Below, in pieces: positions 1 to 3,000 of a stretch of DNA of 54,748 nucleotides. The stretch comes from a virus (taxonomy: Duplodnaviria; Heunggongvirae; Uroviricota; Caudoviricetes), in IMG/VR virus record IMGVR_UViG_2909303794_000001; one strand, given 5' to 3'. Within the stretch, counting starts at the first letter, position 1. Every line of letters starts with the position of its first letter. Made by a program: the position numbers.

Positions 1-3000
1 TTATTTTTTCCAGAGGCGGTCGAACTCCGCCTTCGCAAAATAAGCGGAAGCCTGGCGAAGGATATCGTTACTGCGGCGCAGTTCACGATTTTCACGTTCC
101 AGCTCTTTCAGACGCTGACGTTCAGCGGTGGTGAGTCCACCATCACCACTCCCGGTATCCCGCTCATGCTGACGAACCCACACACGCAGAGTCTCTGGTG
201 TACAGCCAATCTTTGGGGCAATGGAACAAATTGCCGCCCATTGAGAGTCATATTCGCCCTGACTTTCCAGAACCATACGAACTGCCCGTTGACGGACCTC
301 GGGGGAAAAACGTGTATTTTTAGTCATCCTGTTTACCTCTTTCTCAGGGAGTTTAGTCTCCAGGATTCCCGGGGCGGTTCACCCCTGTTTTACCCTGTTC
401 AATGTGAAGATGGTTGTCGTTTATGTCTGACCATTTCATTTTGCACAAATCGCCGACTCTCTGACCTGTAACGACGGCCAAATCCATCGCAAGCCTCAGC
501 CAGATTGGGAGAGGTTCGGCTGCATGGTGAATTGCGACATACTCATTAGCTGTCAGCCTTGAGCGCCTTACTTCTGACTTTGCTGTGCGGGTTGCTGTTA
601 CCGGATTCGTAGCCACATGCCCCTCGGCTATTGCCTCACGAAAAACGTCAACAAGGGTTGACCTGATTAATTTTGCGGAAGCCGCTTTACCTTCTGCTAC
701 GTAGGTGTTTAGCATTGCTGCCACCTCTTTCGTTGATATGTCTGCGAGCGGTTTGTCCGGCAATTTTCTTCGGATTGCCCTGATTTTGCTGGCGTAGTCG
801 AGTAGAGTTTTCGGCCTGATACCCCTCTCGCTGAGGATTGTTTCATATCGGTCAAGCCACGCATGAAGAGTGATTGCGTCAGCGCCTTTAATTCTGTCTA
901 TCAGTGACTCACGCCTGTTCCCGGATAGCAACTCAATATTGGCCTGTATAGCTTCAGTGATTGCTATACGTCTGTCTCGGCCTAATCCGAACTCTTTACC
1001 CGTCCTTGGGTCCCTGTAGCAGTAATATCCATTGTTTCTTATATAAAGATTAGGGGGTAAATCCCGGCGCTCATGACTTCGCCTTCTTCCCATTTCTGAT
1101 CCTCTTCAAAAGGCTACCTGTTACTGGTCGATTTAAGTCAACCTTTACCGCTGATTCGTGGAACAGATACTCTCTTCCATCCTTAACCGGAGGAGGGAAT
1201 ATCCTGCACTCGCGTACCCATCGACGAACTGTTTCAAGGCTTCTTGGGCGTCGCTGGCGTGCGTTCCACTCCTGAAGTGTCAAGTACATCGCAAAGTCTC
1301 CGCAATTACACGCAAGAAAAGCCGCATTGATGCGGCAATGGTAGGTCTGGATATCTTGAGAAATGAACAGGCCTCATTGAGTGTGAGGCTGTGGTTAGTC
1401 CTTGCGTAGCTCGCTAATTCTTCTGTAAGTCTCTGGTGCTTTGTTTCCGTGTATCTTCATTTCAGACTTCAACAGAGCAACGAGGGAATCCCATTCGTTG
1501 AGGATTCCTTTGAATGCCGGAACGCGCTTTGCAACCTTGTTGAATGAATCTCTGATTTCTGGAATCTGCTCAACAAGTGCAACGCATCGTCTGAAATCGG
1601 CTGCGTCATGGGGAGCGCCGAAGTGATGACCATAGATATTCTTTTTCAGTCCACATGCGATTGAGGCAAGAGTTGCGCTACTGATGCCAACATCGCCAGT
1701 CGATTGCCATTTCAAAACCTTCATAGCCAAATCTGACATTTCTTGTCTCCAATAAAAAACCGCCATCAGGCGGCTTGGTGTTCTTTCAGTTCTTCAATTC
1801 GAATATTGGTTACATTGTTTTCATATATGAATAAATAAATTAGCTTTTTTCGTTGCCTTCGCGTTCTTTATTAATTTTGACAAAATCGTTTTTACCACGC
1901 TCTCCAAATACGTCTTTAGAGTCGTTGTATCCGCAATCGCAGCACACATAATCATCAGACCATCCACGCATTGTTTTTTCTTTTGCAATATTTCCAGAAC
2001 CGCATTTTGGACAAGACATATCACTACCTCCAAAGCATGAGAGAGATGACAACGTAACATTGATTGGAGATTAACAATAGATTGCTGATGTAAAAGATAT
2101 GTATAAGCTTAGCTATCAAAGAGGAGGTTCTGGTAGTTGCATCCAGTCGGTTACATTGCGACTCTGTGTTTCGAAAAATTCATCACCATTGCGGACAATA
2201 TCGAAAAACTCTCCGTCTCGATATTGCGCATAAAGAACGAATGCGCCATCACATAAAATAATTACGTGCTGACCATCATCTGGCATTAGCTCACTACAGC
2301 TTATCCAACCATCCGGAGTTACCGGAGAGTTGCCGGGTTCTTTAATGTGCAAACGAGGCTCACCATCTTTTGGTTCAGGCCACTGACGCTCCATGTTGAT
2401 CTTCAATTTATTTTCCATAGCAGCGGTAATTTCAGCATCACTGATACCGGCACGGCGCTGTGCATCCCACAACAGGAACTGCATATCAGCCCACTCGCTG
2501 AGATCGTCAGGTTCGGCTGCGGCTTCCAGAGCCTCTTTTGAGAGGTGTTTCAGTGGACCAATGGGGCCAACGCAGCCAAATGTGGAGTCAGACCATTTGG
2601 CATGCTCGTGGCGAACCCGCTCGCGTTCCAGTGAGGCGAGAGCGATTTTAAATGCTGTAAGCATGTGTGCTTGATCGTTATCGAGTCCGAATGGCATTTC
2701 ATCTCGTGCTGACTCAATACTGGTAATCGTATTTTGTAGCCATTCCATGGTAAAAGTGCTCATCGTAAAATATCCTCTATACTGGTAAGCCCTTCATTAT
2801 TTAGCCAGATCATTGCGTCATCCGGCAACTTGCTGTCTGGTTTTGCGTTTTTGAGAGAGGAACTCAGTCGCTTAATCCACATTGTCAGCTCAGTAATGCG
2901 CCTGTGTTTGCCTTCCAGCTCAACGCGCAGCCTCCCTACCGTTAGTGCAATATCCTCGTTCTCCTTGTCGCGGCGTTTGATGTATTGCTGGTTTCTTTCC

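Follow-up and report, generated by a model that had tools for sequence, protein, structure and literature searches.

An IS629/IS1203-type element in the integrase gene of a lambdoid NleA/NleG prophage at the mdtA|ibs site of Escherichia coli, and its probable effect on excision

The stretch of DNA analysed here (the window, 54,748 nucleotides in length) holds a lambdoid prophage of ~53.6 kb at the mdtA|ibs site of Escherichia coli, which is also occupied in E. coli SLK172, TB354 and others. At the left edge of the window, the reading frame of the integrase gene (int) passes directly into an insertion sequence (IS), and at the right edge a second IS lies in the opposite orientation. This arrangement raises two questions: whether the prophage can still cut itself out of the chromosome, and whether the two IS copies have anything to do with each other. 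The features that bear on these questions are collected in Table 1.

Table 1. Features at the two ends of the prophage, with positions in the window
Feature	Position	Strand	Remark
Left IS629/IS1203-type IS3-family element, visible part	1..381	-	left terminal repeat and complete orfA; terminus at 381
Left orfA	1..327	-	complete, 108 aa; NCBIfam assigns transpos_IS3
int ORF	353..1093	-	starts MGRRRSHERRDLPPNLYIRNNGYY; lambda-type Int
int 5' part, lambda/HK022-type, 712 nt	382..1093	-	codons 1-237 plus 1 nt; frame runs on into the IS repeat
xis (excisionase)	1071..1289	-	intact, 72 aa; identical to the SLK172 excisionase
NleG	50297-50944		Pfam hit
nleA, type III secretion effector	51642..53036	-	final cargo gene before attR; annotated nleA in matching genomes
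attR core AATAAGG	53614..53620	.	where prophage and chromosome meet, at mdtA|ibs
Chromosomal Sib antitoxin RNA	53614..53756	-	Rfam SIB_RNA, 142 bits
Ibs toxin gene	53630-53686	+	overlapped by the antisense Sib RNA; ibs annotation from matching genomes
IS150 terminal fragment, 412 bp	53956..54367	-	right repeat and orfB C-terminus; IS150 match in PEC41 and others
Right IS629/IS1203-type element, visible part	54368..54748	+	terminus at 54368; left terminal repeat, complete orfA (54422..54748)

The junction of int with the left IS

The join lies exactly between positions 381 and 382, where the IS repeat begins. On the int side, all 712 nucleotides are identical to the beginning of the intact, 1074-nt int of SLK172, and this match ends at the IS terminus; the agreement with TB354 int is 696 of 697. 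On the other side, TGAACCGCCCCGGG forms the IS3-family terminal repeat at the left IS terminus (window 381, minus strand), and the minus strand, read from 381 to 1, opens with TGAACCGCCCCGGGAATCCTGGAG, the terminal repeat of IS629/IS1203-type elements of the IS3 family. The gene is thus broken one nucleotide after codon 237, and nine IS-encoded junk codons and a stop (353-355) follow. The first-pass annotation had described an int that reads normally for about 237 codons before it meets the IS repeat, and the comparison with SLK172 bears this out. We also note that int and the IS orfA are co-directional, and we speculate that prophage transcription could enter the transposase gene.

The consequences for the protein can be judged from its domains and from lambda Int. 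In the truncated Int, Pfam recognizes Arm-DNA-bind_1 (E = 4.7e-29), Phage_int_SAM_1 and Phage_int_M, while the catalytic domain, Phage_integrase, is present only at profile positions 2-67 of 172. The earlier statement that the catalytic C-terminus is missing therefore holds. The intact allele (357 aa) aligns without gaps, end to end, with lambda Int (5j0n, 1z1g; E = 4e-177), and this alignment gives the residue numbering of lambda Int that is used here. By this numbering, the break falls after G237; Int keeps R212 and K235, and has lost H308, R311, H333 and the nucleophile, Y342. The catalytic roles of these six residues are well established. The int-xis DNA is ~96% identical to that of HK022. 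In contrast to the lambda and HK022 integrases, only residues 1-237 remain here.

It is important to consider whether the missing part, or a substitute for it, lies elsewhere in the window. The 3' 362 nt of int, which encode H308, R311, H333 and Y342, occur nowhere in it. A tblastn search of the window with two full-length Int proteins returned positions 383-1093 and otherwise only noise. Among 20 ORFs of the window that were scanned with Pfam, no second recombinase was found; the hits were to N, NinB, NinG, a phosphatase, HNH endonucleases, Rz, antirepressors, a capsid-protease fusion, an esterase and NleG, all of which are ordinary lambdoid functions. According to the first-pass annotation, finding int intact in another part of the prophage would argue against an excision defect, and neither search found such a gene in the window. 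Because the catalytic half of Int is absent, the prophage would have no means of excision of its own.

Our preferred explanation, which we consider likely, is that an IS629/IS1203-type insertion has disrupted int in an mdtA|ibs prophage that carries NleA and NleG, with the result that no active integrase is made and self-excision is lost. A 1310-bp element would have inserted into int after codon 237, parting the arm-binding and core-binding domains, along with R212 and K235, from the portion that carries H308, R311, H333 and Y342. The prophage would then be unable to cut itself out despite its intact xis. We infer that the left IS is complete and is a simple insertion with the 3' end of int beyond it. 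To the left of the window, we would accordingly expect ~929 bp of IS (orfB, ending ...CCGGGGCGGTTCA), followed by GGG and GCTAAGCTCGCCATTCCG... (int from nt 713 onward), attL and mdtA.

A 34-nt sequence across the int::IS junction was absent from the viral, genome and metagenome contigs searched, and the junction was likewise absent from 5426 complete E. coli genomes and 50,697 phage records. An exact look-up of the truncated Int protein also gave no match on record.

The prophage and its relatives

The attachment site here is mdtA|ibs, with the core AATAAGG, in contrast to gal-bio for lambda and to the torS-adjacent site of the HK022 type in E. coli. An Int that is 93% identical to the one in the window, the HK022/torS-site Int, is common in E. 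coli. We considered whether int in the window might be of the torS/HK022 type, in which case a rearrangement would have left the prophage with mismatched ends. This candidate was rejected, since identity to the torS-site int is only 93%, compared with 100% to the int that SLK172 and TB354 have at the mdtA site.

The combination of attL and int is held by 74 of 5426 complete E. coli genomes. In 58 of the 60 matches listed, it is uninterrupted and adjoins xis. The other two listed matches are TB354, in which an IS is present, and RM14723, which covers only positions 1-1322. In TB354, a left-type IS lies at int codon 4-5, flanked by a 3-bp duplication (AAG), and is a clean, simple insertion. In a further genome, PK8241, a right-type IS abuts the same int lineage in the opposite orientation without a target duplication (the flanks are AGT and GCT), and the prophage is deleted from the 5' end of int through the Lar/NinB region. 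TB354 and PK8241 thus share with the window the attachment site, a near-identical int, the IS group and a prophage that carries nleA. They differ from it, however, in the position and orientation of the IS and, for PK8241, in the large deletion, and the lesions in the three genomes are independent events.

PK8241 lends some support to a different reading of the left junction, namely that the left IS marks a breakpoint. Under this reading, an adjacent deletion or rearrangement removed or moved the 3' end of int and attL, and perhaps neighbouring chromosome, so that one attachment site would be lost as well as the integrase. In PK8241, an IS629-type element does abut this int lineage, at the same locus, with no target duplication and with the early region deleted, and in the window the flank beyond the left IS is outside the sequence. 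On the other hand, an IS of this subtype inserted cleanly in TB354, where a 3-bp duplication flanks it, and transposition usually results in a simple insertion. In addition, the part of int that is retained has not decayed, and for this reason it indicates that the insertion of the IS629-type element is very recent. We regard a breakpoint as unlikely, and continue to prefer a simple insertion.

Given that at least three IS629-type lesions affect int in the mdtA|ibs lineage with NleA and NleG, it could be asked whether they reflect, instead of chance, selection to lock the prophage in place, or a target preference of the IS, in combination with a dominant-negative effect of the Int fragment. 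The retained fragment has arm and core binding and no nucleophile, and it might prevent related integrases of the HK022 type, where the cell contains them, from catalysing excision. We consider this combined proposal improbable.

Several other features of the window deserve mention in their own right. The exact 464-aa NleA is rare: it was found in three contigs only (of at most 4 kb), from the NCBI draft GCA_050890515.1 and two sequencing runs, and the holders of this protein may be closely related to the source strain. The late region (18126-22013) is laid out as in Stx phages, with no room for stx genes; its order is a putative Q (assigned by position only), tRNA-Met (18928-19003), the sRNA STnc100 (19853-20025) and a 616-aa protein of the sialate-esterase type (20163-22013). 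A 99-nt inverted repeat whose arms are 96% complementary is located at 18731-18829, just upstream of the tRNA, and at 51441-51539, between a transposase remnant (~51147-51422) and nleA. In the nin region (15764-16890), two HNH endonuclease ORFs are adjacent, the second with a weak match to the AP2 domain.

Two further observations concern the morphogenesis genes. At 32764-33368, there are at least three tandem copies of a 162-nt (54-aa) unit, 87-90% identical to each other. They are inside an ORF of 407 aa (32599-33822) that directly follows the likely portal gene (31238-32602) and has no convincing Pfam match. Within the tail gene cluster, a gene for an Arc-like repressor (minus strand) and a gene for a P22-type antirepressor (plus strand) occupy 41092-42687. 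By position, this pair is between the lambda L-like and K-like genes, and it looks like an inserted immunity module.

The right end of the prophage and the second IS copy

Homology to the empty site of PEC41 begins at 53614, and AATAAGG is the sole sequence shared by the attL of TB354, the attR of the window and the attB of PEC41. In the attR region (53470-53756), the arm upstream of the core presumably resembles the P arm of lambda attP. The core also overlaps the ribosome-binding region of the Ibs toxin gene. Further to the right, an IS150 fragment is inserted just upstream of the expected start of ibsA (Pfam finds rve/rve_2 on its ORF at 53982-54350), and this fragment is cut at 54368 by the right IS629-type copy. 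The right IS copy is therefore ~750 bp beyond attR and so outside the prophage; the IS150 in which it is nested is chromosomal and adjoins the ibs/sib locus. Beyond the window, we would expect the rest of this IS, then GGC and TGTAAGAAATAACTTCG... (IS150, for ~1 kb), ibsA and yegL.

Similar arrangements in two other genomes were compared and rejected as the same event. In 65COLEC, an IS is also nested in IS150, but the insertion points are ~50 bp apart. PEC41 has an IS150 next to ibs, but its position differs by 29 bp.

Each IS copy shows only 381 of 1310 bp, and any remainder would lie past the window edges. The visible part of the left copy is matched at 381/381 positions by a 1310-bp element that is complete in E. 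coli 14EC001, and that of the right copy, likewise at 381/381, by one in CFSAN061771; these elements were used as full-length proxies. Left terminal repeats (5'-TG...CA-3', TGAACCGCCCCGG...) are present at 381 on the minus strand and at 54368 on the plus strand, while the right terminal repeats would lie outside the window and were observed in the proxies only. In both copies, orfA is complete and ends GGAAAAAAT(A/G)A; orfB and most of the ALIL pseudoknot would lie past the window edges, and are present in the proxies, which match the visible parts at 100%. One flank per copy is in the window, from which we predict target duplications of GGG (left) and GGC (right). In other genomes, the duplications are AAG (TB354) and TAC, the latter flanking the right-type IS in 65COLEC.

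The copies resemble IS629/IS1203 as known from Sakai pO157 and from O111 and O26 strains: the TGAACCGCCCCGG... termini agree, and so does the length of the proxies (1310 bp); OrfA has 108 aa and terminates in an A-rich slippery site, after which RefSeq annotates the ALIL frameshift pseudoknot in its copies; and the target duplications in the proxies are of 3 bp. However, neither of them is IS629 in the strict sense, and in RefSeq both carry only the label 'IS3 family transposase'. Against the IS629 of Sakai pO157, the visible parts agree at 361/381 (left) and 371/381 (right), and the full-length proxies, over 1310 bp, are 95.4% (left-type) and 96.0% (right-type) identical. The Sakai pO157 element is itself 99.6% identical to one that RefSeq labels IS1203. 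Judged by these identities, both copies are best described as close variants of IS629 rather than IS629 itself, and the first-pass description of the insertion as IS629-like is a fair one.

The first-pass annotation placed a second IS at 54368, inverted and with an identical overlap of 381 bp. While its position and orientation are correct, the overlap is not identical: 363 of 381 positions agree (95.3%), with 18 mismatches, two amino-acid changes in OrfA and different orfA stop codons (TAA and TGA). The full-length proxies (14EC001 for the left type, CFSAN061771 for the right type) are 94.96% identical. The two copies are distinct, non-identical variants that were acquired independently, and for that reason they are not sisters from one transposition or transposition-inversion event. 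Both variants are 100% identical to copies that are common outside the window. The right copy stems from an insertion of its own, unrelated to the left one.

A similar qualification applies to the idea that mirror-image copies frame the whole window. There are indeed two inverted IS ends, ~95% identical, but the right copy is outside the prophage. Moreover, the window stops on either side precisely at an orfA stop codon, cutting the annotated frameshift pseudoknot, and the framing is thus partly a product of where the sequence was cut. The arrangement with two framing copies was not found in the 5426 complete genomes.

The same annotation proposed that the copies could mediate inversion or rearrangement of the segment between them. 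In its strong form, this would mean that ~54 kb, i.e., the prophage and the ibs/sib flank, has been inverted or regularly inverts. The geometry allows it, as the inverted arms (3-384 and 54365-54746) put the copies 53,986 bp apart, and their longest perfect match (133 bp, IS positions 247-379) exceeds the established minimum length of identity for RecA recombination. Nevertheless, copies that are 95.3% identical, or 94.96% in the proxies, diverge by ~5%, and such divergence sharply reduces homologous recombination in mismatch-repair-proficient E. coli. Over the visible 381 bp of each element, each copy is a pure variant (381/381 to its own type) with no crossover within. The order int...nleA-attR-ibs agrees with that of TB354 and SLK172, and copies that differ cannot have arisen together by one intramolecular transposition-inversion. 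The proposal is thus left without support, and inversion between the copies, though possible, is disfavoured to the point that we consider it very improbable.

That the int::IS junction is an assembly artefact, i.e., a false join at a repeat with int in truth intact, deserves practically no credence: both window ends do stop inside an IS, like many short-read contig ends, and the junction is in no other record searched, but the join coincides to the base with the start of the IS terminal repeat, a signature of transposition, and misassembly makes joins within shared sequence, whereas int and the IS share none.

Consequences for excision

In EHEC and EPEC, the disruption of int by an IS is a textbook way in which prophages become domesticated. 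It is important to emphasize that the event described here is in this sense an ordinary, common and well-documented one, of a kind that is already known. The closest precedents are the effector-carrying lambdoid prophages Sp3, Sp11 and Sp12 of O157 Sakai, in which int is also disrupted; these were predicted to be non-excisable and no circular form was found (Asadulghani et al. 2009, PMC2669165). They are, however, other prophages, with other attachment sites and lesions, and they have several further defects. The excision defect that the first-pass annotation considered probable is a reasonable inference, in agreement with these precedents, and we likewise predict that excision has been lost.

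Two escape routes can be envisaged. First, Int of the same specificity may be supplied in trans by another prophage; other kinds of prophage defect were complemented between prophages in Sakai (Asadulghani et al. 2009, PMC2669165). Second, the IS could be removed precisely, e.g., with the aid of the IS-excision enhancer IEE. This enhancer acts on IS3-family elements of the present type; it promotes IS629 excision, and an interrupted lacZ was restored in O121:H19 (PMC9943667, PMC9397093).

For sequencing, the two IS copies mean that short-read assemblies will break at this locus, and the copies could occasionally drive rearrangement. The finding has little importance beyond annotation. In biological terms, it suggests that this effector-carrying prophage is probably immobile, which bears on the spread of NleA and NleG and on how stably they are kept in the strain.
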